DNA of 63,940 nucleotides, the filler included, from Sandaracinaceae bacterium (GTDB lineage: Bacteria > Myxococcota_A > Polyangia > Polyangiales > JADJQN01): NCBI GenBank assembly GCA_947483975.1. It is 17 parts of 17 records of this genome, joined end to end, with 100 filler letters (N's around TTAATTAATTAA, not from the genome) between each part and the next. Parts side by side here need not be neighbours in the genome. Positions count along the whole stretch, not along the records: positions 15,588 to 19,326 come from CANKOL010000462.1; 16 more parts are not named here. One strand, written 5' to 3'. The position numbers and the translations under genes were made by a program. Of the stretch, positions 2,305-19,426 are shown in pieces. The notes under the pieces are model-generated. The model was not told the origin of the DNA, searched no databases, and was given only the letters and a program-made list of their open reading frames with translations. Each line of letters opens with the position of its first letter. Positions within the stretch are counted from its first letter, which is position 1.

Positions 2305-3639
2305 ATGAGCTCCGACTCCGCGGGCGACGTCGCCCACACCGCGCTCGATCAAGCCTACGGCCGTTTCATCGCGGGAGATCGGGACGGGGCGCTGCGCCTC
2401 GCGATCTCCGTGCTGGAGGACGCGTCGTTCCAGGTCGGCGCGGCCTTGCTGACGGTGCGGGTGCTCGCGAAGGAGCACCGCGGCATCGTCGCGGCCGAGG
2501 TCGCCGGGCGGCTCGTCGACGCGTTCGTCAGGCGCGGGGATCTCGCCTCGGCGGTGGTCGCGGCGCGCGCGATCGAGGACTGCGGCGAGAAGGCGCAGGC
2601 GCACTTCGCCGCGATCGCCAAGGCGTTCGGCAAGGGGAGCGCGCGCGTCAGCGATGTGTCGCAGGCGCCGCCGCCGCTGCCGGCCTCGCCGGGCGTCTCG
2701 CGCGCGCTGGCGAAGCTGAAGGGCGAGGCGCTCGGTGATCGCGCGGAGGTCGCGCTCGCGCAGCTGCTCGCGCAGGACGATCCGGTCGCGGCCGACACGC
2801 TGCTGCCGAAGCTGCCGCTCGTCGGCGCGCTCGCGCCCGCGGTGCTCGAGCGGATGCTGACGGCGCTCACGGTGCGCGACTTCGCGGCGGAGTGCGATGT
2901 GCTGCGCCAAGGGGACGAGGGGCGCGAGGCGTTCATCGTCGTGCGCGGTGCGCTCCGCGCGCTGCGGCAGGGCGACGACGGCAGCGAGACGACGCTGGCG
3001 CTCCTCGGGCCGGGCGCGATCTTCGGCGAGATGGCGCTCGTCTCGGACTCGCCGCGCGCGGCGCGGATCAACGCGATCGAGGAGGTCACGCTGCTCGTCG
3101 CGGCGCGCGATGTCCTCGAGCAGATCGCCAAGAGCGAGCCGGTGCTCGGCGCGGAGCTCGCGTCATTCTGCCGCGGGCGCATGATCGGGAACCTGCTCCG
3201 GCACAGCGCGATCTTGCGCGCGGTCGCGCCGTCGGAGCGCGCTGACCTGATGGGGCGCTTCGAGACGCGCACGTTCGCCGCGGGGGAGCGCCTCGTCGAG
3301 GCGGGCACCGAGGCGGAGGGGCTGTTCTTGATCGCGAGCGGCACGGTGCGCGTGTCGAGCGAGGACGCGGACGGCGACACGATCGTGCTCGCGCACCTCG
3401 GGCCAGGGGATGTCGTCGGCGAGATCTCGCTCGTGCTGCGGCGCCCCGCGACGGCGGACGTGACGGCGGAGCACGCGACGATCGCGCTCGAGCTGAAGCG
3501 CGAGCAGTTTCACGCGGCGATCAAGGAGCATCCGACGCTGCTCGGGGAGCTCTACGAGCTCGCGACCAAGCGCGAGGAGGAGACTCGCTCGGTCGTCGCG
3601 CAGGAAGCCCTCGACGCCAGCGACTTCGTGATCGTGTGA
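2305..3639 (+). CDS. Protein with tandem cyclic-nucleotide-binding domains
   Basis: Two cNMP cassettes (GPGAIFGEMAL...PRAA and GPGDVVGEISL...PATA); no HTH seen. Confidence 0.85.
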   Translation: MSSDSAGDVAHTALDQAYGRFIAGDRDGALRLAISVLEDASFQVGAALLTVRVLAKEHRGIVAAEVAGRLVDAFVRRGDLASAVVAARAIEDCGEKAQAHFAAIAKAFGKGSARVSDVSQAPPPLPASPGVSRALAKLKGEALGDRAEVALAQLLAQDDPVAADTLLPKLPLVGALAPAVLERMLTALTVRDFAAECDVLRQGDEGREAFIVVRGALRALRQGDDGSETTLALLGPGAIFGEMALVSDSPRAARINAIEEVTLLVAARDVLEQIAKSEPVLGAELASFCRGRMIGNLLRHSAILRAVAPSERADLMGRFETRTFAAGERLVEAGTEAEGLFLIASGTVRVSSEDADGDTIVLAHLGPGDVVGEISLVLRRPATADVTAEHATIALELKREQFHAAIKEHPTLLGELYELATKREEETRSVVAQEALDASDFVIV

Positions 3640-4343: not shown

Positions 4344-7220
4344 ATGACACCGCTCTCCCGTACTCCGCTCTTCTTCTGCTGTTTGACGGTGCTCTCGCTC
4401 TCGCTCGGCGCCTGTGGCGACGATGACGCGACGCCCGACGCGGGCTCGCCCGACGCCGGTCCGCCCGACGCTGGCCCCGGCGCGCGCACGACGTTCCCCG
4501 GGCTCGATGGGCACGTCGAGGTCACGCGCGACACGCGCGGCATGGTGCACATCTACGCGACCACGACCCACGACGCGATGTTCGTCGAGGGCTACGCGAT
4601 GGCGCTCGATCGCTTCCCGCAGATGGAGCTGATGCGCCGCGCGGTCACCGGGCGCCTCTCGGAGTTCAACCCGACGGCGGACGCCGCCTCGATCGACGGC
4701 GACCTCGAGGCGCGCTGGAGCGGCCACGCGCGCAACGCCGAGGCGATCTACGCGACGCTCGCCGCGGACAGCGACGAGAAGCTCGGCGTCGACGCGTTCA
4801 GCGCGGGCGTGTCGCTCTACATCGAGGACCTGCTCGCGGAGCGCGTGGACCTGCCCGCGGGGGCCGAGGTCGTCAACTTCATCATCTCGAGCGGCACGCT
4901 CGACGCGTGGCGCCCGCAGGACACGCTCGCCATCGCCCGCTACATGACGCACTCGCTCGGCTACGCCGCGAGCGAGGAGATCGCGCTGACCGGCGCGCGT
5001 GAAGCCGCCGCGATGGAGTTCCCGGCGGGCGATCCGCGCGCTGACCTCTTCAGCGACCTCTGGTCGTTCGCGCCCGCCGAGGGCGTCTACGCGCGCAACG
5101 GCGTGCCGAACCTCGGCACGGACACCGGCACGCGCGCGCTTCGTCCGCCGCACGCTCCCGGCCTCACGCTGCCGACGTTCCACGCGGACCGCGCCGCGCT
5201 CGCGAACGCGACCAACTTCTTCGCGGGCGCCGACCTGCTCACGCAGCGCATGGGCAAGAGCGAGCGCGGCTCGAACAACTGGGTCGTCAGCGGCACGAAG
5301 ACGGCGACCGGCAACTCGTTCTTGATGAACGACCCGCACCTCTCGCTGAACAACCCGCCGCTCTTCTGGTTCGTGCAGCTCAACACCAAGCGCGACGGCG
5401 GACCGGGCGCGAACCTCAACGTCTCGGGCCTCGCGCTCGTCGGCTCGCCGGTCGTGCTGCTCGGCTACAACGACTCGATCGCGTGGGGCCTGACGGTCGC
5501 CTATCACGACGCGACGGACGTCTATCAGGAGACGATCACCGACGGCGGCGCGGGCCCCGACACGGTCCTCTTCAACGGCGCGCAGGTGCCGATCGAGACC
5601 GTCACCGAGACCATCCACGTCGCGGGCGGGCCGGACGTCACGGGCACCTTCGAGCGCGTGCCGCACCACGGCTTCATCGTCCCCGAGATCCGCGACGGCA
5701 TGGTCGTGCCGCGCACCTCGAGCACCGCGCTCTCGGTGCGCTGGACGGGCGATCATCCGTCGAACGAGGCGGGCGCGATCTACCGCATCAACGTCGCGAC
5801 GAGCATCGACGAGGCGCGCACCGCGCTGCAGTCCTTCGAGACGGGCGCGCAGAATTTCGTCTTCATCGAGCGCGGCTCGGACGACATCTTCTGGTCGACG
5901 CAGGCGTTCGTGCCGGTGCGCCCGGACGCCTGCCTCACCTACGACCCGGTGACGCGCGCGGGCGTCGGCCCGATGTTCGTCCTGCCGGGTGACGGCACCT
6001 GCGAGTGGGCCGCGGCGCCGATGTCGGACCGCTACATCCCGCACGATCTCAACCCCGCGCGCGGCTTCATCGCGACCGCGAACCAAGACCCCGTCGGCGC
6101 GACGGACGACGGCAACCCGCTCAACGAGGGCACTCCGACGGAGCCCTTCTACGCCGGCTGGGACTACGACCTCGGGCACCGAGAGGCGCGCATCACGAGC
6201 GAGCTCACGCGCCTGACGACGCGCGGCAACGTCACCGTCGAGGAGATGCGCGCGATCCAGAACGACGAGCGCTCGCCGCTCGGCGCGCTGCTGACGGCGT
6301 CGCTCGTGACGTCCCTCGAGCACGCGGCGGAAGAGGTCGCGACGCCGGGCGCGCACCCGGAGCTCACCGACGAGGTCACCGCCGCCGGTCCCGCGACGAT
6401 GGCGCGCGTCGATCAGGTGCGCGAGCGCCTCGCGGCGTGGGGCTTCACGACGCCGGCCGGCGTCGAGGGCACGCCGACTCCGACCGAGATCTCGGAGAGC
6501 GTCGCGACGACGCTCTTCAACACCGCGCTCACGCGCATCGTCCGCGGCGCGTTCCTCGACGAGACGACTCGCCTCGGTCATCAGCCCTCGAGCGACACGA
6601 TCTCCAAGACGCTCGAGCGCGCGCTGCTGCACTCGGCGGCGGGCGATCCGAAGCGCCTCGCGACGTTCGACCCCGCCATCGGCGACACCATCCTCTGGGA
6701 CGACGTCTCGACCGTGGGGACGATCGAGACGCGCGACGAGATCATCCTGCGCGCGTTCGTCTCGATGCTCGACGCGATGGAGACGCGCTTCGCCTCGGCC
6801 GACCTGGACACCTGGCGCTGGGGCGTGCTGCACACGCTGCTCCTCTCGAGCGCGGGCTCCGTGCCGCCGGTCGGGCGTGACCGCTTCACGCTGCCGCTGC
6901 GCACGAGCACGACGTTCCCGAACGGCTACCCGCGGCACGGGGACCTCTGGGGCGTGGACGCGTCCAACTTCAGCATCTGGACCTCGACGGACGACTACTC
7001 GTACGAGTCCGGCCCGCAGCAGCGGCTCGTCGTCGAGATGACCGACACCGGGCCGAAGATCTGGAACGCGCTCGCCGGCTCGCAGGTGCTCAACGGGAGC
7101 AGCCCGCACTTCGGCGACGAGATCGAGCTGTGGCGTCACAACGAGGCGCCGCCGCTCTACTTCACGGACACCGACGTCGCGGCGCACGCCGAGTCGACGA
7201 CCAACTACACGCCCGAGTGA
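4344..7220 (+). CDS. Penicillin acylase family Ntn-hydrolase lipoprotein (alternative start 4326)
   Basis: GSNNWVVSG autoproteolysis/nucleophile motif, NDPHL, ATANQ; lipobox LGAC. Confidence 0.9.
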   Translation: MTPLSRTPLFFCCLTVLSLSLGACGDDDATPDAGSPDAGPPDAGPGARTTFPGLDGHVEVTRDTRGMVHIYATTTHDAMFVEGYAMALDRFPQMELMRRAVTGRLSEFNPTADAASIDGDLEARWSGHARNAEAIYATLAADSDEKLGVDAFSAGVSLYIEDLLAERVDLPAGAEVVNFIISSGTLDAWRPQDTLAIARYMTHSLGYAASEEIALTGAREAAAMEFPAGDPRADLFSDLWSFAPAEGVYARNGVPNLGTDTGTRALRPPHAPGLTLPTFHADRAALANATNFFAGADLLTQRMGKSERGSNNWVVSGTKTATGNSFLMNDPHLSLNNPPLFWFVQLNTKRDGGPGANLNVSGLALVGSPVVLLGYNDSIAWGLTVAYHDATDVYQETITDGGAGPDTVLFNGAQVPIETVTETIHVAGGPDVTGTFERVPHHGFIVPEIRDGMVVPRTSSTALSVRWTGDHPSNEAGAIYRINVATSIDEARTALQSFETGAQNFVFIERGSDDIFWSTQAFVPVRPDACLTYDPVTRAGVGPMFVLPGDGTCEWAAAPMSDRYIPHDLNPARGFIATANQDPVGATDDGNPLNEGTPTEPFYAGWDYDLGHREARITSELTRLTTRGNVTVEEMRAIQNDERSPLGALLTASLVTSLEHAAEEVATPGAHPELTDEVTAAGPATMARVDQVRERLAAWGFTTPAGVEGTPTPTEISESVATTLFNTALTRIVRGAFLDETTRLGHQPSSDTISKTLERALLHSAAGDPKRLATFDPAIGDTILWDDVSTVGTIETRDEIILRAFVSMLDAMETRFASADLDTWRWGVLHTLLLSSAGSVPPVGRDRFTLPLRTSTTFPNGYPRHGDLWGVDASNFSIWTSTDDYSYESGPQQRLVVEMTDTGPKIWNALAGSQVLNGSSPHFGDEIELWRHNEAPPLYFTDTDVAAHAESTTNYTPE

Positions 7221-7242
7221 GCCGCGCTCGCGAAGCACTCGC

Positions 7243-7743
7243 GTGAGCGTGCCCGCAGCTCTTCAGGCGTCGCTCGACGCGCTCCTCGACGGCGAGGAGC
7301 TCAGCGACGACGCCATCGCGGGCACGTTTCGCGTGCTGCAGCGCGTGCGTGGGCACCGCTACTCGCTCGACGACGTCGCGACGGCGTGGGTCGCGGCGCG
7401 CGCGCAGCCGACGGCGCGCCGCGTGCTCGACCTCGGCTGCGGGCTCGGCTCGGTGCTGACGATGCTCGCGTGGAAGCTGCCCGAGGCGCGCCTCGTCGGC
7501 GTCGAGGCGCAGGGCATCTCGTTCGCGCTCGCGCAGAGAAACGTGGCGCGAAACGCCGGCGTCGGGGCGCGCACGACGCTCGTGTACGGCGACCTCCGCG
7601 ACGACGCGGTGCTCGCGCGCGCGCTCGCGGGCGGGCCGTTCGACCTCGTCAGCGGCACGCCTCCGTATATGCCGCCGGGCACCGCGACGCCGTCTCCCGA
7701 CTCGCAGCGCGCGCACGCGCGCATCGAGCTGCGGGGGGGTGTC
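7243..7743 (+). CDS. SAM-dependent methyltransferase, TrmN6/YfiC-like, 3'-truncated
   Basis: GHRYSLDD, VLDLGCGLG (motif I), GTPPY (motif IV variant). Confidence 0.75.
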
Positions 7744-7845
7744 NNNNNNNNNNNNNNNNNNNNNNNNNNNNNNNNNNNNNNNNNNNNTTAATTAATTAAN
7801 NNNNNNNNNNNNNNNNNNNNNNNNNNNNNNNNNNNNNNNNNNNCC

Positions 7846-9849
7846 GACACCGTCTGCTGCGCGACCGGCGACCTCTGCTACCTCGGCGCGTGCACGACGC
7901 CCGGCCCCGCGTGCGCGTCGACGCGCGACTGCGCCGACGGCCTCTACTGCGAGCCGACGGCGCTGCGCTGCCTGCCGCGCGCGACCGGCACGATGTGCGA
8001 GTACCGCCCGCCCGTCGGCCCGCTCGAGCTGAACGAGAAGTGGCACTGGACCGGCGACGCGGAGGTCTTCCCGACGCACGCGCAGGTGATGATGGCGCCG
8101 ATGGTCGCCAACCTCGACGACGACAACGGCGACGGACTCATCGATCAGAACGACATCCCCGACGTCGTCTTTCACACCTTCACGGGGGCCGACTACTGGG
8201 GCAACGGCATCCTGCGCGCGGTGCGCGGCTCCGACGGCGCGCGCCTCTGGCCGCTGCCCTCGCTCGACCCCGGCTACCGCACGACGCCCGGCGGCGAGGT
8301 CGCGATCGGCGACGTCGACCCCACCTCGCCCGGCCCCGAGATCGTCGCCTGCAGCGCGAGCACGCGCCCCGCGACCGCTGGCCACGTCCTGATCATCCGC
8401 GCGGACGGCACGCTCCTGCGCGAGTTCCCGACCGTGCCGTGCGGCTTCGACGCGCCGGCGATCGGCGACCTGGACAACGACGGCGTCCCCGAGATCGTCG
8501 TGCGCTTCGTCGTGATGCACGCCGACGGCACCATCGTCCGCACGCTCGTCGACGACCCCGCCGTGACCGGCGCCTACGTCACGCTCGTCGACGTCGACGG
8601 GGACGGGACGCTCGAGATCGCGAGCTCCTCGGTCGTCTTCCGCCTCGACGGCAGCGCCGTCTGGGACCGCCGCGCGGCGGGCGCGCTCGGCGCCGCGGTG
8701 CCGAGCGGCGGGCAGGTCGCCATCGGGGACCTCGACCTCGACGGCGACGCGGAGCTCGTCACCGTGACCTCCGGCGATCACGCGATCCGCGCCCTCGACG
8801 CCGCGACCGGCGCCGACGTCTGGGGCCCGATCGACATCAACCCGCTCGACGACGCGACCGTCGCCGCAGACGTCGCGGCCGACACCGGCCTCGGTCGCGG
8901 CGGCGGACCGCCGACCATCGCGAACTTCGACTCCGACCCCGAGCCGGAGGTCGCGTTCGCGGGCGGCTTCGCCTACGTCATCTTCAACCACGACGGCACG
9001 CGCCTCTGGTACCACGTCACCACCGACCGCTCCTCGCGCGTCACCGGCTCGAGCGTGTTCGACTTCGAAGGCGACGGCGTCGCCGAGGTCGCCTACAACG
9101 ACGAGCGGCAGTTCCGCATCTACAGCGGGCCCGACGGCACCGAGCTCTACTCGCGGTGCAACACGAGCGGCACGCTGCGGGAGTATCCGCTCATCGTGGA
9201 CGTCGACAACGACGACCACGCCGAGGTCGTGCTGATGGCCAACAACTACGCCTTCGGCTGCCTCGACGGCACGCCGAGCGGCACCGGCATCTACGTCTTC
9301 GGGCACCCGCGCAACGAGTGGGTGCGCACGCGCCGCATCTGGAACCAGCACACCTATCACGTCACCAACGTGAACGAAGACGGCACCATCCCGCGCACCG
9401 AGGCGCGCAACTGGACCGTCCCGCGCCTCAATAATTTCAGGCAAAACGTGCAGCCCGACGGCCTCTTCGACGCGCCGGATCTCACGCTCACCGACCTCAG
9501 CGCGTCGACGAGCGCGTGCCCGACCTCGCTCGCGCTATCCGTCCGCGTCGTCAACCGCGGCGCCGCCGGCGCCCCCGCCGGGATGCCCGTCACCTTCTAC
9601 GACGTGACGAGCGGCACGCGCGTGCGCGTCGGGCGAGTGACCACGACCCGCGCGCTCCTCCCCGGCGAGAGCGAGGTCGTCACGCTCACACCGGGCTTCG
9701 CCGTGCCCGTCGGCATGGCGACGACGACCTTCCGCTTCGACGCGGTGCTCAACGACGCGACCGATATGCCGCGCGACGACGTGCACCAGTGCGACACGAG
9801 CAACGACTCCGCGACGGCGATCGAGGTGACTTGCCCGTCGATTGGGTGA
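7846..9849 (+). CDS. FG-GAP/VCBS repeat protein with C-terminal Ig-like (CARDB-like) domain, 5'-truncated
   Basis: Repeated GDLDxDGxPEIV units, SSVFDFEGDG, WNQHTYHVTN; frame open back to the contig start. Confidence 0.85.
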   Translation, partial: DTVCCATGDLCYLGACTTPGPACASTRDCADGLYCEPTALRCLPRATGTMCEYRPPVGPLELNEKWHWTGDAEVFPTHAQVMMAPMVANLDDDNGDGLIDQNDIPDVVFHTFTGADYWGNGILRAVRGSDGARLWPLPSLDPGYRTTPGGEVAIGDVDPTSPGPEIVACSASTRPATAGHVLIIRADGTLLREFPTVPCGFDAPAIGDLDNDGVPEIVVRFVVMHADGTIVRTLVDDPAVTGAYVTLVDVDGDGTLEIASSSVVFRLDGSAVWDRRAAGALGAAVPSGGQVAIGDLDLDGDAELVTVTSGDHAIRALDAATGADVWGPIDINPLDDATVAADVAADTGLGRGGGPPTIANFDSDPEPEVAFAGGFAYVIFNHDGTRLWYHVTTDRSSRVTGSSVFDFEGDGVAEVAYNDERQFRIYSGPDGTELYSRCNTSGTLREYPLIVDVDNDDHAEVVLMANNYAFGCLDGTPSGTGIYVFGHPRNEWVRTRRIWNQHTYHVTNVNEDGTIPRTEARNWTVPRLNNFRQNVQPDGLFDAPDLTLTDLSASTSACPTSLALSVRVVNRGAAGAPAGMPVTFYDVTSGTRVRVGRVTTTRALLPGESEVVTLTPGFAVPVGMATTTFRFDAVLNDATDMPRDDVHQCDTSNDSATAIEVTCPSIG

Positions 9850-9880
9850 GGCGGACTTGGTTGTTCAGGCGCCGACCGGA

Positions 9881-9960
9881 CGACCCGACCGGGGTTGGTT
9901 TCGGAACCCACGCTCGGCGTGCGACCCGACCGTGGTTGGTGTCGGAACCTACGCTCGGCG
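9881..9960. repeat. Two 39-bp direct repeats (period 41, 36/39 identical) with imperfect internal palindrome, downstream of the RAYT gene
   Basis: cgacccgaccggggttggtttcggaacccacgctcggcg and cgacccgaccgtggttggtgtcggaacctacgctcggcg. Confidence 0.9.
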
Positions 9961-10173
9961 CGGAGTCATCGCCGGGCACCGCGGACCGTTTCCGTCCCCC
10001 CGACGCGTATTGGTCGCGCGCGCAGGCCGCTCAACACCGCGCTCGAGCTCGCTCAGAGCCCGTCTCCGGTCGCACCCCATCCCGCCAGGCCCATTCTCTC
10101 GCCCCGCGGACGCACGTCTCCCTCGACGGCCGCACTTCCCGCCCGCGCTCACCGCCGACTTGTCAGTCGCGCG

Positions 10174-11076
10174 CTACGTGACGACGGCGGCGCCGTGATG
10201 GCGCACCATCCACCACGTGCCGGCCGGGAACACAGCGTCGCGCAAACCGGCGCACCATCGCTCGAGCGCTGCGTCATAGGCCGCCGCAAACGCGCGCAGC
10301 GCCCTAATCGCGGCCTTGTACGCGCCGGGGACCCCGCCAACCGCGAAGGTGGGATTGCGCGACACGAGTGCCTCGATGCTAGTCGCGCGGTCGTACGGCG
10401 ACACCCTCTCTGCGCGGTCAGCGCCGAGGAAGTTCCAGCCCTTCTCAGCGACCTCTTCGCGCCCGCGAATCTCTTGCTCTTTGACCGACGCGCGGACCGC
10501 CCCGCGCCACGCATCGGCGTCTTCCGGCGCGACGCTCGGCGGAAGCCCGAGTTCAAGCTCGGCGTAGTCGGGCCAGTAGTCGTTCTCGGCATCGAAGTAG
10601 TAGTCGGGGCGCGCGGCGCGCATGCGGCCACCGGCGAGGTCGGCGACACGGCTCTTGGCGCCCGGCCACTCACGCGCATACCGCACGAGCCCGGCAGCCA
10701 CGGGATTCGTAAGCGCATAGCCGACGGCGTTGACGATCGCCTCGGGCGTTGTCAGCTGAACCACTGAAGTCTGTGCGTTGTCCCAAACCGCGCCCTCCCA
10801 CTCGCGCAGGACCTTGAGTCCGAGCGCCACCAGCCGGTGGAAGAACGCGAGAAAATCGGGCAGTTCGCCGCGCGTGTCGGTCGCCACGAGGTGGTAGTGA
10901 GACGACATCACGTCGAACGCGTGGACGGCCAGGCCGTAGCGCGTGGCCGAGACCGCGAGCGCATAGACGAACAGCTGTCTCACCTCACTGTCTGGCCGGA
11001 GCAGGAAGTGCCGGCGCAGCGTGCGGCGCGTGATCAGGACGGTGGAGCCGACGACGACAGGGCGAGCGCGGGACAT
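10174..11076 (-). CDS. REP-associated tyrosine transposase (RAYT/TnpA-REP-like, HUH Y1 nuclease) with C-terminal extension
   Basis: N-terminal ITRRT, HUH in VMSSHYHLV, catalytic Tyr in GYALTNPVAAGLV, then EWPG. Confidence 0.88.
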   Translation of the reverse strand: MSRARPVVVGSTVLITRRTLRRHFLLRPDSEVRQLFVYALAVSATRYGLAVHAFDVMSSHYHLVATDTRGELPDFLAFFHRLVALGLKVLREWEGAVWDNAQTSVVQLTTPEAIVNAVGYALTNPVAAGLVRYAREWPGAKSRVADLAGGRMRAARPDYYFDAENDYWPDYAELELGLPPSVAPEDADAWRGAVRASVKEQEIRGREEVAEKGWNFLGADRAERVSPYDRATSIEALVSRNPTFAVGGVPGAYKAAIRALRAFAAAYDAALERWCAGLRDAVFPAGTWWMVRHHGAAVVT

Positions 11077-11088
11077 GCGCGAGCACCG

Positions 11089-11133
11089 AGCAGGAGATGT
11101 GCCGGAGACCGGGTGTGTGATTTCAAGGGGTTA
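11089..11133 (-). promoter_or_regulatory. Sigma54-like promoter with upstream IHF-like site for the RAYT gene
   Basis: Minus strand CCGGCACATCTCCTGCT (GG-N10-GC) at 11089-11105; TTTCAAGGGGTTA at 11121-11133 is one mismatch from WATCAANNNNTTR. Confidence 0.55.
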
Positions 11134-11146
11134 CAAGCGCGAAATG

Positions 11147-11189
11147 GCGAATCCGCCGGCGGACGCCGCCAGGCCGGCGGCGGATTCGC
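11147..11189. repeat. 12-bp perfect inverted repeat with 19-nt loop
   Basis: GCGAATCCGCCG ... CGGCGGATTCGC. Confidence 0.8.
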
Positions 11190-11220
11190 GTGCGCGAGGA
11201 GGGCACTGACCAGAACGGGA

Positions 11221-11417
11221 GCGACCAAGGCGCGCCTCGGTGCGGAGGTTACGGCGCGACCAAGGTTGAGGTCGTGGCGCGACCAAGGTTGAGGTCGTTG
11301 AGGTCGTCCCCACCAAGGTCGCGGGGTCGTGGAGGTTACCGCGACCAAGGTTGAGGTCGTGGCGACCAAGGTTGAGGTCGTGGACATCCGGCTCGGAGGT
11401 CGTGGACATCCGGCTCG
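11221..11417. repeat. Cluster of REP-like palindromic repeats upstream of the RAYT gene
   Basis: GCGACC-AAGGTTGA-GGTCGT at 11256, 11279, 11341 and 11362; partial copies at 11221 and 11311; GGAGGTTAC at 11244 and 11331; 22-mer GAGGTCGTGGACATCCGGCTCG at 11374 and 11396. Confidence 0.9.
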
Positions 11418-11447
11418 TCGCAGTGCGGCTACGCTGCGCGGTAGCGC

Positions 11448-11624
11448 TCAGCTAGGCGCTTGCAGCGAGTTCGGCGACGGGGTCGGCGTCGGGCACGGGC
11501 CCTCGGTCGCGGTGTCGACGCCGCCCGCCGCGGCGGCGCAGCGCGTCGGGTGCGTCTGCCCGTCGCAGCCGCACACCGGGCGGTACTCGCGCGTGCAGAG
11601 CGTCGGGCGCGGTCGGCAGACGCC
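11448..11624 (-). CDS. Kazal-type serine protease inhibitor domain, C-terminal fragment (absent from the ORF track)
   Basis: Translates GVCRPRPTLCTREYRPVCGCDGQTHPTRCAAAAGGVDTATEGPC...PS*. Confidence 0.8.
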   Translation of the reverse strand, partial: GVCRPRPTLCTREYRPVCGCDGQTHPTRCAAAAGGVDTATEGPCPTPTPSPNSLQAPS

Positions 11625-11725
11625 NNNNNNNNNNNNNNNNNNNNNNNNNNNNNNNNNNNNNNNNNNNNTTAATTAATTAANNNNNNNNNNNNNNNNNNNN
11701 NNNNNNNNNNNNNNNNNNNNNNNNG

Positions 11726-13153
11726 CTCGGCGCGCCGGCCGACGCCGCGACGATCGCCGCGCGGCAGGCGTGCGTGCGGGAGCTCGCCGAGCGCGTCGAC
11801 TTCCGCGAGAAGCTCGAGACGGCGGCAGCGCTCGCGCCCGCCGCCCGCAAGAGGCGCAGCGCCGCTGGCCCGGAGAAGCTCGACCCGCAGCCGTTCCTCG
11901 CGTTCGCCGCGATGCCGCGTGTGTTCGCGCAGCGCGCCTGGCTCGCGCCGCTCCTCTATGTGTTGCCGGTGGTCGCGCTGGCGGCCGTCGCGCTCTCGTC
12001 GGTGGGGCTGGTGCCGCCGCTCGCGTGGATGGCGCCCGTGCTCGTCAACGTGCTGCTCAACTTCGCGACCGCGCGCGAGGTGCGGGCGGCGCTCGATCTC
12101 GTCGCGGCGCGGCGCGGCTTCGGCGAGGCGTTCGCGGAGATGTTCGTCGCGCTCGAGCAGGAGCCCTTCGTCGCGCCCGAGCTGCGCGCCTTGCGGGAGC
12201 GCGCCGTCGTCGCCGGGGAGCTGCCGAGCGCGCACCTGCGCGTGCTCGATCGCTGGGCGGGCTTCGCCGAGCTGCGCACTCAGTTTCCGCTGCACCTCGC
12301 CATCAACAACCTGCTGCTCTGGGACCTGCAGTGTCTGCTCCGGCTCGAGCGCTGGGCGGACCGCGCGGGCACTCAGGCGGGCGCTTGGTTCGACACCCTC
12401 GCCGAGGTCGAGGCGCTCGCCTCCCTCGCGACGCTCGCGCACCAGGACCCGAGCGCGCGCTTCCCCGAGCTCGCGCCCGAGGGCAGCGCGTTCGTCGCCG
12501 AGGGGCTCGTCCATCCGCTGCTCTCGCCGCAGAAGCGCGTCGCGAACGACGTGACGCTCGGCGGTCCGGGCACGGCCCTCGTCGTCACCGGCTCGAACAT
12601 GGCGGGCAAGAGCACGCTGCTCCGCGCCGTCGGGCTCAACGTCGCGCTCGCGCTCGCGGGCGGCCCGGTGACCGCGACGGCGCTGCGCGTCCCGAGCGTG
12701 CGCCTGCGCGCGAGCATGCGCGCCGACGACTCCCTGCAGAGCGGCGCGAGCTACTTCCACGCCGAGCTGACCAAGCTGCGCAGCGTCGTCGAGGACGCTG
12801 CCGCCGCCCCGCCCGTCTTCTTCCTGCTCGACGAGCTGCTGCGCGGCACGAACGCGAGCGCGCGGCACCTCGGCGCGCGCGCGATCGTGCTCCATCTGCT
12901 CTCGCGCGGCGGCTGCGGGCTGGTCGCGACGCACGACGTCGCCCTCGCCGCGCTCGAGGGCGAGCTCGACGGCAAGGTGACGAACGCGCACTTCACGGAC
13001 GTCGTGCGCGACGGCGAGATGGTCTTCGACTACCGCCTGCGCCCCGGCGTCGTGCGCACGAGCAACGCGCTCAGGCTGCTGCGCATGGCGGGCATCGAGG
13101 TGCCCGACGAGCACGTCGCGAACGAAGACGCCGCGCGCGACCCGAACGCCTGA
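11726..13153 (+). CDS. MutS-related ATPase (domain V) with transmembrane segments, 5'-truncated
   Basis: TGSNMAGKST, SYFHAE, LLDELLRGTN, ATHD motifs; hydrophobic hairpin upstream. Confidence 0.88.
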   Translation, partial: LGAPADAATIAARQACVRELAERVDFREKLETAAALAPAARKRRSAAGPEKLDPQPFLAFAAMPRVFAQRAWLAPLLYVLPVVALAAVALSSVGLVPPLAWMAPVLVNVLLNFATAREVRAALDLVAARRGFGEAFAEMFVALEQEPFVAPELRALRERAVVAGELPSAHLRVLDRWAGFAELRTQFPLHLAINNLLLWDLQCLLRLERWADRAGTQAGAWFDTLAEVEALASLATLAHQDPSARFPELAPEGSAFVAEGLVHPLLSPQKRVANDVTLGGPGTALVVTGSNMAGKSTLLRAVGLNVALALAGGPVTATALRVPSVRLRASMRADDSLQSGASYFHAELTKLRSVVEDAAAAPPVFFLLDELLRGTNASARHLGARAIVLHLLSRGGCGLVATHDVALAALEGELDGKVTNAHFTDVVRDGEMVFDYRLRPGVVRTSNALRLLRMAGIEVPDEHVANEDAARDPNA

Positions 13154-15587: not shown

Positions 15588-15799
15588 GGAGCATGGACGC
15601 TGGGGAACCAACCCGAGGGACCCAGCCGAGCAAAGGGCGGCACCGGGGCATGGAATCGTAGGAGGGAAAGATGGGAGAGACTCTGAGCTCGCAAACGGTC
15701 TCAACGAAACTTCAACGAATAGCGGAAGCGGCGAAGGCAAATCCAGAGCGGGCGTTCACGACGCTCGCCCACTTCATCGACGTCGAGTGGCTGCGCGAG
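15588..15799 (+). mobile_element. Group II intron fragment (domain III-like RNA plus start of the RT/maturase ORF), interrupted at 15800
   Basis: GCTGGGGAAC...GGGACCCAGCCGAGCAAAGGG resembles domain III; GGAGG RBS then an RT N-terminus at 15671. Confidence 0.8.
15671..15799 (+). pseudogene. Group II intron reverse transcriptase N-terminus (43 codons) truncated by transposon insertion
   Basis: MGETLSSQTVSTKLQRIAEAAKANPERAFTTLAHFIDVEWLRE; RT-like sequence stops exactly at the TGT left end. Confidence 0.8.
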
Positions 15800-16011
15800 T
15801 GTTGGGCATCACGCAGATTCGTGAACCACGGCTGTGCTTGCTCGGACTGGGCCACCGTTGGTTCGCCTGATGCGTTGGGCCATTGCGGGAAACTTTCCCG
15901 CCGAGGTCGGTCGTAGGAAGCTGTGGGTGACGGTGATGCCGTCGCTGCAGTTCACGAGGTGAAGGCAAAAGGATGGCCCGCCACGGTGGCAGCCGTGCGG
16001 GCCAATGGCCG

Positions 16012-16641
16012 GTGCAGTTGCGCCACGAAACGGCGCACACCAGCGAGGAGTACGTTAGCCACGAAGGCTGGCGGAATGCAACGCTGGCGAGGTGCCCTTT
16101 GCATCCGGGAGGGGGTTGCGGCTTCGCGCGCCACGCGACGTACGCGCGGGTGTGGCCTGCGGGGATGCGGGTGGCTCGGTTCTACTGTCCGCTGGGGCGC
16201 GTGACCTTCAGCTTGTTGCCGGATTGCTTGGCGAGTCGCTTTAGCGGGAGCCTCGACGCTCTCGAGGCGACGGTGGTGGCGGTCGAGGAGTCGCGGGCCG
16301 CGGGAGCGACGATGGAGGCGGCAGCCGCGGCGGTTCGGCCGGAGGTCGACGTTGTCATCGCGCTGCGTTGGGTCTACCGGCGGCTGACGCCGATTCGACA
16401 GGCGGTGCGGACGCTGGAGACGGTGATGCCATTGCTCGCCGGCGCCGCCGGTCAGTTGTCATCGGTACGCAGCAAGCTCGCGACGAAGCGAGCGCTGGTT
16501 TCCCTGCGCTCGATGGCATCGCCGCACACGCCGCAGTTGCCGCCGCCTCTCGGATACGGCCCCCGTGTGAGACGGCGCAGGTCTCGCCGGCGGCGCTCCC
16601 AACACGAAACGGGGGCAGATCCGCCGCCGGGAAAGCGATAG
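16012..16641 (+). CDS. Transposon accessory ORF1 with Cys/His cluster and Arg-rich tail (alternative start 15973)
   Basis: CPLH...GC..ARH...FYC...LLPDC; first ORF inside the left end. Confidence 0.7.
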   Translation: MQLRHETAHTSEEYVSHEGWRNATLARCPLHPGGGCGFARHATYARVWPAGMRVARFYCPLGRVTFSLLPDCLASRFSGSLDALEATVVAVEESRAAGATMEAAAAAVRPEVDVVIALRWVYRRLTPIRQAVRTLETVMPLLAGAAGQLSSVRSKLATKRALVSLRSMASPHTPQLPPPLGYGPRVRRRRSRRRRSQHETGADPPPGKR

Positions 16642-16685
16642 CCCTCACCCAGCGCCGCACGGAGCGGCGCGAGGAGGGCAATGCC

Positions 16686-18071
16686 ATGATGGATGACAAG
16701 AAGCGGGACCGTAACGAAGAGATCGCGCTCTTTCGATACGGTCTCATCGCCGACCTCACGCATCGTACGGCCGGCGAGGCGGGGCTCTACGCCTGCCTTG
16801 GTGAGAAGGCGGCCAAGACCTACTCGATCCCCGGTTCTCGTCGCACGCGCGTCGCGGTCGAGACGATGCGGGGCTGGCTGCGCGACTGGCGCCGCGGCGG
16901 CTTCGACGCGCTGCGACCGAAGTCGCGCACGGATCAGGGCCACGCTCGCGCGCTCCCCCAGCCTGTCGCGGATCTCCTGTGCAGCCTCAAGGAAGAGAAC
17001 CCCGCGCTGTCGGTGTCGTTGATCATCGCGCAGGCGCAGGCGAGCGGCGAGGTTCCCGCCGAGGTAGTGCTCGCGCCAGCGACGGTGCATCGGCATCTGA
17101 GCCGCCAGGGTCTGATGGAGAAGCGGCCTGATGCGCCGACGAGCAATGATCGGCGGCGCTTCGCCTTCGAGACGGCCAACGAGCTGTGGATGAGCGACGT
17201 CATGCATGGGCCGGCCGTCATCACCGAGGGGCGCCGCAAGCACAAGACCTACCTCATCGCGATGCTCGACGACGCCACGCGGCTCATCCCTTACGCGGCC
17301 TTCGCGATGGCGGAGAACACGGCCGCGTTTCTGCCCGTCCTCGAGCAGGCGCTCCTGCGCCGCGGCGTACCCAAGCGGCTCTATGTGGACAACGGCTCCG
17401 TCTATCGGTCTCGCCACCTCGAGCTTGTTTGCGCCAAGCTGGGCATGACGCTGATCCACAGCCGGCCCTATGTGCCCCAGGGCCGAGGCAAGATGGAGCG
17501 CTGGTTTCGGACTGTGCGACTGCAGCTACTCCCCACGTTGACGGATGGAGACACTGCCAGTCTCGACGCCCTCAATCGACGGTTATGGGCCTATGTCGAG
17601 GGTGAGTACCACCACCGGCCGCACAAGGGCCTCGACGGACAAACTCCGCTGGACCGCTGGCTCACCGCCTCCGGCGACGTGCGCCTGCCGAGCCATGACG
17701 TAGACCTCGCGCAGCTCTTTCTCTTCGAGGAGAAGCGCAAGGTCGCCAAGGATCGCACCGTCAGCTTGCGCGGCATCCTCTTCGAGGTGGATGCGACGCT
17801 CGTGGGCGAGACCGTCATGCTGCGCTTCGATCCCACGCGGCTCCGCCGCCCCGTCGAGGTGTGGCACAAGGGCCGGAAGATCGAGCACGCCCGCCCGGTC
17901 GACGCCTACGCCAACTGCTTTGTCTCCCGCAACCACGCCAACAAGCTGCACCAACCCTCCAGCGGGCCCGATGCGCCGCCGACAGGCTTGCGCCTGCGCG
18001 ATCTCAAGGACCGCGACGACGGCAACGGAAACGACCATGGCAACGGCCACGAACCCGTGGGAGGTGCGTGA
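16686..18071 (+). CDS. DDE transposase (rve integrase core, Mu/TnsB-like C-terminal region)
   Basis: GAGGAG RBS; WMSD, LDDATR, YVDNGS, GKMERWF; N-terminal HTH-like region. Confidence 0.92.
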   Translation: MMDDKKRDRNEEIALFRYGLIADLTHRTAGEAGLYACLGEKAAKTYSIPGSRRTRVAVETMRGWLRDWRRGGFDALRPKSRTDQGHARALPQPVADLLCSLKEENPALSVSLIIAQAQASGEVPAEVVLAPATVHRHLSRQGLMEKRPDAPTSNDRRRFAFETANELWMSDVMHGPAVITEGRRKHKTYLIAMLDDATRLIPYAAFAMAENTAAFLPVLEQALLRRGVPKRLYVDNGSVYRSRHLELVCAKLGMTLIHSRPYVPQGRGKMERWFRTVRLQLLPTLTDGDTASLDALNRRLWAYVEGEYHHRPHKGLDGQTPLDRWLTASGDVRLPSHDVDLAQLFLFEEKRKVAKDRTVSLRGILFEVDATLVGETVMLRFDPTRLRRPVEVWHKGRKIEHARPVDAYANCFVSRNHANKLHQPSSGPDAPPTGLRLRDLKDRDDGNGNDHGNGHEPVGGA

Positions 18072-18868
18072 TGTACCGCAAACACTTCGGCCTGACGCGA
18101 CACCCCTTCTCGAAAGAGCTCGAGCCCGACGAGCTCTTCGGCTCCTCCGCAGCCCGTGAGCTCGAGGTGCGCCTCGGCCACTGGCTCGAGATGAGGGGCA
18201 TCGGCCTCGTCACCGGCGAAAGCGGAAGCGGCAAGACCACCGCGTGCCGCAAAGTAGTCAGTGGCCTGCATACTGGCCTTTATCGGGTGGTCTACGTCTC
18301 GCTCTCCACGGGCAACGTGATGGACCTCTACAAGACCATCGCCTGGGAAATGGGCCTGCCCACGGAGCGCAGCCGCTCCGCGCTCTATCGGCAGGTCCGC
18401 CTCGAGGTGACGCGCCTGTGCACCGAAGTCCGCGCTCGCCCCGTCCTCATCGTCGACGAGGCGCATAACCTCCGCTCCGAGCTGCTCGAGGATCTGCGAC
18501 TGCTCACCAACTACCAGATGGACGCCGAGAACAGGCTCGCACTGCTGCTCGTTGGCCAGCCCGAGCTGCGAAGGCGACTGGGCATGACCGTCTACGAGTC
18601 TCTCTCCCAGCGCATCGTCGTGCGAGCGCATCTACCAGGACTCGCGCGCGACGAACTCGCGCCGTACCTCGAGCACCTCATCCGACGCGCCGGCACCGAA
18701 CTGCCGCTCTTCGAGCCCTCTGCCCAGGAAGCCATCTTCCAGGCTACACAGGGCCTCCCGCGCAAGGTGAACCTCCTCGGACACCACGCGCTCATGGCCG
18801 CCGCCCTCGCACGCGCAAAGCTCGTCACCGCCGAACACGTCCAGGCCGCGCTCGGGGAGGTGTCGTGA
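18071..18868 (+). CDS. ExeA-like AAA+ ATPase (TnsC/MuB/IstB-type transposition helper)
   Basis: MYRKHFGLTRHPF start, Walker A GESGSGKT, Walker B LIVDEAH, LVGQPEL, GLPRKVN; TGATG coupling to the transposase. Confidence 0.92.
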   Translation: MYRKHFGLTRHPFSKELEPDELFGSSAARELEVRLGHWLEMRGIGLVTGESGSGKTTACRKVVSGLHTGLYRVVYVSLSTGNVMDLYKTIAWEMGLPTERSRSALYRQVRLEVTRLCTEVRARPVLIVDEAHNLRSELLEDLRLLTNYQMDAENRLALLLVGQPELRRRLGMTVYESLSQRIVVRAHLPGLARDELAPYLEHLIRRAGTELPLFEPSAQEAIFQATQGLPRKVNLLGHHALMAAALARAKLVTAEHVQAALGEVS

Positions 18869-19164
18869 TGGGCGACAAGAGCCGCTCCGCGCCCGCCACC
18901 GACGTCGCCGCTCCAGAAGACCTCGTCCGTGCGCCCGAACTCGCCTCACTCGCAATACTCGAGGCGGTCCTCGCCATCGCCGAGACCCATATCCTCGTCG
19001 CCAATCCACAACTCGCCGACCCGCTCGCCGTCTGCGACCCCTGCGACCGCTTCATCCACGACCTGCTGTGCGACCTCGCTCGCACCAGCGGCTCCCTGCA
19101 CCAATACGTCCGCTGCACCCGCGCCCTCCTCGAGACCATCGACCAACGCGACGTGCCCTTCTAA
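18868..19164 (+). CDS. Transposon accessory ORF4, 98 aa, ending DVPF
   Basis: GGAGG RBS and TGATG coupling to the ATPase; followed by a hairpin. Confidence 0.65.
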   Translation: MGDKSRSAPATDVAAPEDLVRAPELASLAILEAVLAIAETHILVANPQLADPLAVCDPCDRFIHDLLCDLARTSGSLHQYVRCTRALLETIDQRDVPF

Positions 19165-19190
19165 CCACGCCTGCTCCAGGCCACTAACCG

Positions 19191-19232
19191 CGAAGCCCCG
19201 GGAGCCCACTGGCCTCGGGGCTTCGTCCTTCC
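19191..19232 (+). terminator. Hairpin closing the transposon operon
   Basis: CGAAGCCCCG ... CGGGGCTTCG 10-bp stem followed by TCCTTCC (weak U tract). Confidence 0.5.
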
Positions 19233-19426
19233 TCGCGCCACGTGCTGGCTAACAATCAGAGAAATTCGGCGACTGCGTCACGAAGAAGCCCGAGAAACTG
19301 CCGGCGAAACTACGTGAGCGCCGACANNNNNNNNNNNNNNNNNNNNNNNNNNNNNNNNNNNNNNNNNNNNTTAATTAATTAANNNNNNNNNNNNNNNNNN
19401 NNNNNNNNNNNNNNNNNNNNNNNNNN

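Follow-up and report, generated by a model that had tools for sequence, protein, structure and literature searches.

A Tn6049-related four-gene transposon in a Sandaracinaceae genome bin and a possible role of its fourth gene in recruiting DNA synthesis

The stretch of DNA analysed here (the window; 63,940 bases) is made up of 17 contigs of about 3.7–3.8 kb from a genome bin of a Sandaracinaceae bacterium (5.29 Mb in 524 contigs, 81% complete), chained via N44-TTAATTAATTAA-N44 spacers. Positions 15800–19326 are occupied by a 3527 bp transposon with four genes, which stands alone on its own 3739 bp contig (contig C462 of genome G000, window positions 15588–19326). All four genes lie on the plus strand. 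The first open reading frame (ORF1, 15973–16641) encodes 222 amino acids and is a putative divergent DUF6431 protein. It is followed by a DDE transposase of 461 amino acids (16686–18071) with a helix-turn-helix (HTH) region, an rve core and a Mu-transposase C-terminal barrel, by an AAA_22 ATPase of 265 amino acids (18071–18868) and by ORF4 (18868–19164) of 98 amino acids, or 99 if the alternative GTG start at 18865 is used. ORF1 and the transposase are separated by 44 nt, and TGATG overlaps couple the transposase to the ATPase and the ATPase to ORF4. A preliminary description of this DNA had proposed a discrete four-gene transposon built around a transposase and an ExeA-like ATPase, with the last three genes joined by these overlaps. 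All four reading frames are present where it placed them, the overlaps are as it read them, and the overall picture stands.

An alignment of ORF1 relatives led to 228 candidate stretches in species-representative genomes, 212 of which encode a relative; the best 80 were kept as loci for comparison. In this family ORF1, DDE transposase and AAA_22 ATPase always come in this order, and the fourth slot is variable. The ATPase follows the transposase in 60 of the 66 transposase-bearing loci, and several of the remainder are cut contigs. The same order is found on the Geobacillus plasmid pGS18 as DUF6431, 'IS481 family transposase' and 'AAA family ATPase', with 38–40% identity to the window proteins. 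Contig C496 of the same bin carries a paralogue at 69% identity with identical gene order; there the frame beyond the ATPase (3042–3219) stays open to the contig end and bears no resemblance to the ORF4 family. In another locus (L036, about 9700–12750) a 6300 bp element has its ATPase gene split by ORFs of 538 and 273 amino acids, which look like an IS21-type IstA/IstB pair. A frameshift fusion of ORF1 with the transposase, the frame of which is open from 16368, was considered and dropped because ORF1 is conserved up to its own stop and serves other recombinases.

The tips of the element (TGTTGGGC... on the left, ...GCCGACA on the right) form the inverted repeat proposed earlier, with 16 matches in 22 positions between TGTTGGGCATCACGCAGATTCG, read from 15800, and TGTCGGCGCTCACGTAGTTTCG, the reverse complement read from 19326 back. 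The left terminal inverted repeat is TGTTGGGCATCACGCAGATTCGTG (15800–15823, plus strand). The right one, together with an outer box, spans 19292–19326 on the minus strand and reads TGTCGGCGCTCACGTAGTTTCGCCGGCAGTTTCTC inward, its last base being the end of the contig. By itself this repeat is within chance: the contig holds 382 inverted pairs, and the 25 listed are all as long or longer. On such a GC-rich contig the ends therefore needed other validation, namely a family consensus, a break in the flank and breaks in metagenome assemblies. Alignment of eight left and eight right tips of family members gives the consensus TGTTGTnTCnCACGTAGTTTCGTnG, in which T1, G2, T3, C11 and C21 are invariant, and both window tips fit it. 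The element has conserved tips of the type TGTTG...CAACA and at least two conserved boxes at each end. The right ends of eight elements carry a pair of ATTTC(T/C)C boxes with a spacing of about 33 bp. In the window these boxes are the GAGAAA..GGCGA repeats already seen at 19259 and 19292; the inner box (19259–19275, minus strand) reads ...CGCCGAATTTCTC. On the left, a subterminal box GCTCGGACTG...GGTTCGCC (15840–15867, plus strand) is likely to be a second transposase-binding site. The left ends of other elements share a TCGGA(T/C)TG box at an offset of about 44, and in locus L082 the left subterminal box copies the terminal site at 17 of 24 positions.

Insertion sites of relatives were collected, and perfect 5 bp target duplications flank all 14 insertions that could be delimited. 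A loose C-N-N-N-G target bias is visible, with C at position 1 and G at position 5 in ten sites each. The 14 restored sites are unrelated to one another and all lie inside open frames of 207–1253 amino acids, a location that is a weak point, since GC-rich DNA abounds in long open frames. Several long-read genomes contain more than one copy. One Spirochaetia chromosome carries five copies, each of 3528 bp and at 99.9–100% identity, with tips TGTTGTATCCCA...TGGGATACAACA and five different duplications (TTCTG, CCAGT, CGATG, GCCCG and CACGC). By analogy with the 14 relatives, GCGAG at 15795–15799 is presumed to be the left copy of the duplication in the window.

The DNA to the left of the element (15588–15799, plus strand) holds the 5' start of a group II-intron-type reverse transcriptase gene, with an ORF from 15671. 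This N-terminal piece of 43 amino acids is cut after ...EWLRE at 15799, and its similarity to reverse transcriptases ends exactly there. Of 151 genomes from the order, 24 contain multi-copy ORFs of about 480–510 amino acids whose N-termini it matches, at up to 74% identity. A full-length relative (L109, 502 amino acids; RVT_1, 92 bits) reads ...DWLRE-AYRRTRK across the corresponding position. The interrupted gene is itself a multi-copy mobile element in related genomes, with eight matches in genome G135 and five in G142. Neither the left flank nor the tips were found elsewhere in the 81%-complete bin.

The third line of validation comes from public lake-water metagenomes, in which contigs of four runs, each from a different study, were compared with the window. 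One of the runs (X1) may be the source sample of the bin. In run X1 the element is assembled as pieces covering 15800–18340 (depth 133) and 18319–19326 (depth 124), and the piece with the window's own left-flank junction has a depth of 15.6, all of these depths being sums over contigs. The same run contains a second left flank joined to the same tip, and a 1080 nt piece that overlaps 19297–19326 and continues past the right end. Run X5 has a piece covering 15799–18340, and run X6, from an independent study, shows yet another left flank. Metagenome pieces thus start at 15800 or 15799, and since several flanks and branch points fall exactly at the predicted ends the element is repeated and mobile. 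These observations confirm 15800 and 19326 as its ends and show that it is present at several sites in natural communities. The element is intact as far as the contig reaches and has been recently mobile. Parts of it without cover in runs X5, X6 and X9 are no evidence of absence. Inside the ATPase gene, a separate 38 nt piece of higher depth (18311–18348; 151 in X1 and 92.5 in X5) breaks the assembly graph, and the stretch around it is probably common to other family members. Further contigs of X5 and X6 make only brief contact with 17870–17891 and 18387–18404.

The earlier term 'complete' falls short of proof for the window copy, as the contig stops at the right tip; any feature that apparently stops at one of the spacers is in fact at a contig edge. 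Beyond ORF4, and 26 nt past its stop, lies a strong GC hairpin (19190–19226, plus strand; fold −39.9 kcal/mol, z = −3.94 against shuffles). It has no U-tract and is possibly a transcript end or a structural site. A scan of promoter and terminator consensus sequences found nothing, and Rfam gave zero matches to the contig at E <= 1.

The transposase matches HTH_32, rve (49.3 bits) and Mu-transpos_C (32 bits) in Pfam. Among solved structures it is closest to TnsB of a type V-K CRISPR-associated transposon (CAST; E = 2.4e-10), and its best PHROG is phrog_310, the transposase of transposable phages (152 bits). The putative DD(35)E triad is formed by Asp171, Asp235 and Glu271, which are kept in the alignment with the Tn6049 transposase. 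The top NCBIfam model is that of IS481 (NF033577), with 198.2 bits against a curated cut-off of 224, in line with the earlier remark that the family is poorly classified. The NCBI pipeline likewise names the Geobacillus and Tn6049 transposases IS481. The locus could on these grounds be read as an ordinary IS481-family insertion sequence (IS) that moves by copy-out/paste-in through its transposase alone, with the ATPase, ORF1 and ORF4 as cargo. We consider this quite improbable: the score is below the cut-off, the transposase has a Mu-transposase C-terminal domain, and the ATPase, which matches a transposable-phage B protein and MuB, is coupled to it by TGATG and follows it in nearly all loci.

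The second half of this core, the ATPase, is an AAA_22 protein (97.6 bits) that just misses TniB in Pfam (22.2 bits, cut-off 22.4). Among named models it matches TIGR03015, an ExeA-like PEP-CTERM ATPase, most strongly (E = 5e-50, below the cut-off of that model). Its sole solved relative is MuB (PDB entry 8xvb, E = 3.3e-5), and its PHROG is phrog_296, 'DNA transposition protein' (115 bits). Gly49, Lys55 and Thr56 form a putative Walker A motif and Asp129–Glu130 a putative Walker B motif. The element had been introduced as TnsB/TnsC-like. The transposase is a relative of TnsB; the ATPase is nearer to ExeA/PEP-CTERM ATPases and MuB than to TnsC or TniB. The ATPase is best described as ExeA/GspA-like by sequence and, by analogy, MuB-like in role. 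Plasmid relatives of the ATPase have 35–40% identity to it. Among the 30 listed, most are called 'AAA family ATPase', one 'ExeA family protein', and four are true cellular PEP-CTERM ATPases in a polysaccharide locus. One genuine XrtA/PEP-CTERM ATPase lies in an exopolysaccharide locus of the N. vulgaris plasmid pDV (L105, 3501–4820) and is 36% identical to the transposon ATPase. With such genuine PEP-CTERM ATPases as the nearest cellular relatives, the transposon and ExeA/EpsA-type ATPases are real kin, beyond a likeness of annotation. The misnaming that was anticipated does occur, as the Tn6049 ATPase is named gspA after general secretion pathway ATPases in the excerpted text of PMC2864759.

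For ORF1, 447 relatives were found; the 120 listed are all without a precomputed Pfam domain. Residues Cys41, His44, Cys49, Cys72 and Cys85 are invariant among the relatives and are followed by TFSLLPDCLA. Models with a predicted local distance difference test (pLDDT) score of 83 for the whole chain and 90.8 for the N-terminal domain predict an N-terminal β-domain with a putative Cys/His zinc site, a helical HTH-like domain and a disordered basic tail. Against solved structures the whole protein has no Foldseek match at E <= 0.001 and a best VIA-align Z of 5.0. For the N-terminal domain the best values are E = 0.14 and Z = 3.6, a result that excludes no family. Weak HTH/Myb-like rows for residues 88–180, including an IS TnpE and the Iβ subdomain of MuA, were returned by VIA-align. 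Window ORF1 has no match to DUF6431 (PF20020, cut-off 26.6 bits), and 14 of 34 relatives match it weakly (best E = 0.0095). The Geobacillus counterpart, in the same gene order, reaches 47.7 bits, and in the nearest ESM Atlas clusters 29–57% of the members have DUF6431 (score 0.96–0.97), often together with an HTH. Judged from these sequence relationships, ORF1 is probably a divergent DUF6431 protein. Literature searches for DUF6431 gave incidental mentions only and no functional study, and ORF1 has no match in the phage collection.

ORF1 pairs a zinc-binding with a helical HTH-like domain, a composition also known from TniQ. One could see in the locus a pared-down Tn5053/Tn7-like element whose ORF1 is a cryptic selector of the TniQ/TnsD type, guiding the ATPase to a defined target. 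The 5 bp duplications and the type V-K CAST TnsB as closest solved transposase would fit. We regard this reading as very improbable. As had been observed before, no TniQ or Cas protein is recognizable: neither ORF1 nor ORF4 has a match in Pfam or NCBIfam (TniQ/TnsD: E <= 0.1), and the fold searches gave ORF1 no clear match. Similarity to Tn402 TniA (E = 6e-6 over 125 amino acids) and TniB (E = 9e-4) is weak. ORF1 is common to DDE and tyrosine-recombinase elements and the 14 insertions are scattered over unrelated genic sites, which makes a TniQ-type selector role unlikely. Rather than selecting sites, ORF1 could be a DNA-binding regulator or end-architecture factor built from a zinc finger and a helical domain, an assignment that we put forward tentatively and with the odds somewhat against it.

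The association of ORF1 with other recombinases is seen in the 80 loci, where its neighbours are a DDE transposase in 66, HTH_36 and/or tyrosine recombinases in seven (some on cut contigs) and a large serine recombinase, standing at a distance, in two. On plasmids of Marinobacter, Mesorhizobium and Sphingobium an unannotated ORF1 relative lies just upstream of three tyrosine recombinases, and Paraburkholderia has a remnant of such an arrangement. In Marinobacter pMAQU02 (L098, 4375–8461) and Mesorhizobium pMLa (L099, 4366–8489) a terminal inverted repeat of 35–38 bp encloses ORF1 together with the trio, which suggests that ORF1 is a genuine gene of these recombinase-in-trio (RIT) elements. A second RIT-like type (L043, 6992–11405; also L044, L030 and L067) has the order ORF1, HTH_36 and three Phage_integrase genes, with stops and starts that abut or overlap; one copy comes from a contig assigned to Heimdallarchaeota, for which caution about the binning applies. 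In a quick tree of 68 ORF1 sequences, from which partial matches, sequences with internal stops and duplicates had been dropped, the seven trio-linked sequences form one clade among the DDE-linked ones (Shimodaira–Hasegawa-like approximate likelihood-ratio support 99). Each of the two serine-linked sequences pairs with a DDE-linked neighbour, and these two loci may be secondary rearrangements.

It could be argued that an ORF1 beside a tyrosine or serine recombinase is a leftover from the insertion of such elements downstream of ORF1 in Tn6049-like transposons, and that ORF1 belongs to the DDE element alone. RIT elements in the transposase gene of a Tn6049-related transposon of Acidithiobacillus are indeed mentioned in the available part of Van Houdt et al. 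(PMC3414803), and the two serine-recombinase loci have gaps of about 870–1660 bp after ORF1 in addition to their DDE-linked tree neighbours. For these two loci the argument may well be right. As a general account it is unlikely: the repeat that brackets ORF1 and the trio is 94–95% matched and has its left arm upstream of ORF1, the genes of L043 abut or overlap, no transposase or ATPase remnant was found in the recombinase-linked loci, and the trio-linked ORF1s form a single well supported clade. RIT elements are described as three coding regions in an excerpt of PMC10214605. By their sequences they appear to carry an overlooked fourth gene and look like four-gene elements.

In most elements the fourth slot is filled by an ORF that begins at the ATPase stop. 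With window ORF4 as query, tblastn gave no match in the 80 loci and a word-based search gave one relative. A profile search over 1.84 billion representatives (E <= 0.001) yielded 751 relatives (clusters). The ORF4 types share an amphipathic N-terminal helix, P-x-x-W-(T/S)-P-E..A..L..L, and an acidic C-terminus ending in (L/I/V)PF, the tip of the family being ...D-x-(L/I/V)-P-F. Window ORF4 ends in ...DQRDVPF and its 68% relative in ...QRDLPF. A full-length ATPase is present in 53 loci; in 29 of them the ORF in the slot has a (P/N)F end. These ORFs comprise 23 distinct sequences, and ten of the sequences carry QL[DS]LF directly before the tip. As background, PF is the end of 45 of the 9358 frames of at least 40 amino acids in the loci, a count that takes in the slot ORFs. 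Of the best 149 among the 751 relatives, found with a profile that included the tail, 117 end in F, 94 in PF and 86 in an acidic ..xPF tip, and 25 contain QL[DS]LF. Relatives that were matched through the N-terminal helix alone also bear the tip.

Several ORF4 relatives end in ...DDDIPF, which is also the end of single-stranded DNA-binding proteins (SSBs) from genomes that carry elements of this family; an acidic ..PF tip is present in seven of nine SSB paralogues. These tails were taken from hosts of related elements, since the SSB gene of the bin itself runs off contig C380 before the tail. The likeness is confined to the C-terminal tip, as ORF4 has no Pfam match to the SSB OB-fold domain (PF00436). 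QL(S/D)LF, in turn, is the bacterial β-clamp motif as stated in an excerpt of PMC9690074. A predicted complex of window ORF4 with the DnaN of the same bin scored 0.11 against a mark of 0.32 and counts neither way. On these motifs, ORF4 may be a hook that recruits SSB-partner proteins and/or the β clamp to the transposition joint, which we rate only a little short of an even chance. A literature search for an SSB-type C-terminal tip on a transposon protein found no report, the matches being, by title, papers on phage SSBs.

Other occupants of the slot also occur. In a Spirochaetia locus (L068, 9874–10851) the slot holds a 325-amino-acid AAA_25 ATPase resembling DnaB/RepA (121 bits) in an element of 4207 bp. 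Four loci (L016, L042, L047 and L048; for example 9773–10177 in L042) have an unrelated slot ORF of about 134 amino acids without a Pfam match, which begins ...GLW..R..VAVVVDDDGRA and has clamp-motif-like ends (QLRLL, QLRLW, QMPLF and QLPML). From motifs and gene position we infer that the fourth slot would supply or recruit DNA synthesis at the strand-transfer joint. The same motifs could also serve a decoy, with the ORF4 tip competing with SSB for repair or restart proteins or for the clamp, so that repair is delayed, intermediates are protected or a host response is disarmed. Like many accessory modulators ORF4 is small and dispensable in cis, and clamp-binding toxins such as SocB exist according to part of the text of PMC9690074. 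Such a decoy nevertheless seems unlikely. The helicase-like ATPase that takes the same slot in L068 favours bringing replication in over keeping it out, and the conserved N-terminal helix of ORF4 suggests an anchor to the element's own proteins.

Taken together, we consider it probable that 15800–19326 holds an intact and recently mobile element from a large family with sizes of 3.2–3.6 kb, which is distantly related to Tn6049 and belongs to the Mu/Tn552/Tn7 superfamily, and that the element transposes as follows. The transposase would bind the boxes, pair the ends and expose the 3'-OH at the terminal CA. The ATP-bound ATPase would coat or mark target DNA and activate strand transfer with a 5 bp stagger, in the manner of MuB, TniB and TnsC. 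As the four ORFs of the element include no TnsA-type second nuclease and no resolvase domain, the host must finish the strand-transfer product, which would be completed by host replication or gap repair. At this step the N-terminal helix of ORF4 would hold the transposition complex, its acidic ...PF tip would mimic the SSB C-terminus and, together with the adjacent QL(D/S)LF clamp motif present in many relatives, would recruit SSB-partner proteins and/or the β clamp to the joint. ORF1 would act as a regulator or end-architecture factor and have no part in target choice.

A number of points weigh against this reading. The right flank of the window copy and its own second target duplication are out of sight, because contig C462 ends at the right tip. 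The metagenome depths are not copy numbers, and run X1 is possibly the source sample. The canonical QL(D/S)LF is absent from window ORF4 and from its 68% relative, 24 of the 53 loci with a full-length ATPase have no ...PF ORF in the slot, and the tail counts are partly circular, since the tail was part of the search profile. ORF4 is also dispensable in cis, because two identical 3183 bp copies without it (L082 and L083, each at 6790–9972) have moved to different sites with different 5 bp duplications. The role of ORF1 is not specific to DDE elements, as ORF1 serves tyrosine-recombinase elements too, and the first ORF of Tn6049 is Cys-rich and not detectably homologous to it (BLASTP E ~1; hhalign probability 0.2%). 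Finally, the roles of all four proteins are assigned by analogy only.

Transposons of the Mu/Tn7 superfamily that have neither a second nuclease nor a resolvase depend on the host to take over their strand-transfer product, and to our knowledge this hand-over is known in detail for phage Mu only. A compact and widespread family (at least 212 loci in many phyla and 751 ORF4 clusters) with a peptide-sized signature that points towards host partners makes the question testable. In the widest form of our interpretation the fourth slot is one for bringing its own replication, filled by an SSB-tip/clamp adaptor or by an AAA_25 DnaB/RepA-like ATPase, ORF4 is the first transposon-encoded mimic of an SSB tail, ORF1 is a general mobile-element factor and RIT elements have four genes; for this combination as a whole we see somewhat less than an even chance. 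If it is true, the slot occupants would serve to initiate or complete DNA synthesis at the joint formed by strand transfer, and ORF4 would be a portable peptide, modelled on ...DDxIPF and QLDLF, that hooks restart proteins of the PriA type or gap-repair proteins. A single DUF6431 protein would then serve DDE transposons and tyrosine-recombinase trios alike. If the motif reading is wrong, what is left is a new clade of a named, unstudied transposon, well delimited and otherwise ordinary. For annotation, the ATPase goes under the names gspA, ExeA or PEP-CTERM ATPase and the transposase under IS481, and ORF1 and ORF4 are mostly uncalled. New here are the SSB-tip/clamp-motif family of putative adaptors and the DUF6431-like protein shared with RIT elements; the superfamily itself has already been named.

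Compared with known systems, the element matches no fully characterized family, and its ends are conserved among copies. Searches of the literature on transposons with ExeA/AAA_22 ATPases or on IS481-type elements with accessory genes returned nothing relevant, IS481 being judged by titles. IS481 itself, which shares the best transposase model and the pipeline name, is a single-gene IS, in contrast to the four genes, ATPase partner and Mu-type C-terminal domain found here. RIT elements are alike in having ORF1 as the first gene inside the terminal repeats, and differ in their three consecutive tyrosine recombinases, of which the window element has none.

Phage Mu relies on host replication restart after strand transfer. 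Mu and the transposable phages share with the window element and its relatives the A and B protein families, the 5 bp duplication, near-random targets and the lack of a resolvase. The element has 3.5 kb rather than about 37 kb and no phage genes, and no Mu counterpart of ORF1 or ORF4 was detected. Use of the β sliding clamp or of replication structures by transposon proteins is described in excerpts of PMC12153342, PMC4549789, PMC3971601 and PMC11417375 for Tn7 TnsE and for IS and Tn3 transposases. Unlike in TnsE and the clamp-binding transposases, the motif in this family is on a separate protein of about 70–100 amino acids and is combined with an SSB-type tip.

Like the window element, the Tn5053/Tn402 module (TniA, TniB, TniQ and TniR) pairs a DDE transposase that has a Mu-type C-terminal domain with a downstream AAA+ ATPase. 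On plasmid pHS87a, Tn402 has a 5 bp duplication and TGT tips as in the window family, as given in part of PMC4739549. The window element differs in lacking TniQ and a resolvase and in its scattered insertions, as opposed to hunting for res sites.

Of the named elements, Tn6049 of Cupriavidus metallidurans CH34 comes closest; it is reported in the excerpted text of PMC2864759 as a 3.5 kb element with 12 copies in that strain, all with the gspA ATPase. It measures 3517 bp on pMOL28 and pHS87a, compared with 3527 bp here. The gene order is the same: a small ORF, an rve transposase, the AAA_22 'gspA' ATPase and a second small ORF. Its tips are imperfect TGT...ACA inverted repeats with an inner ...CAG(A/C)TT(T)CGTGA box, as in the window, and it too inserts into genes. 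The transposases are 26% identical over 380 amino acids (E = 7e-31) and the ATPases 26% over 211 (E = 1e-15). The last ORF of Tn6049 is homologous to ORF4 (hhalign probability 94.8%, E = 5e-8, 39 columns) and ends in ...DLADNDF, not in ...PF. The Tn6049 transposase has no Pfam Mu-transpos_C match at E <= 1e-4, whereas the window transposase has one. The copy of Tn6049 on pMOL28 has a target duplication of 5 bp (TATGG) and that on pHS87a one of 4 bp, compared with 5 bp in the window relatives. For the pHS87a copy in Pseudomonas aeruginosa, 12 bp repeats and the 4 bp duplication are also given in part of PMC4739549. No published mechanism of Tn6049 was found in the searchable literature. Judged by this sequence comparison, the window element is a distinct sister clade within a named superfamily that includes Tn6049, and not the same element.

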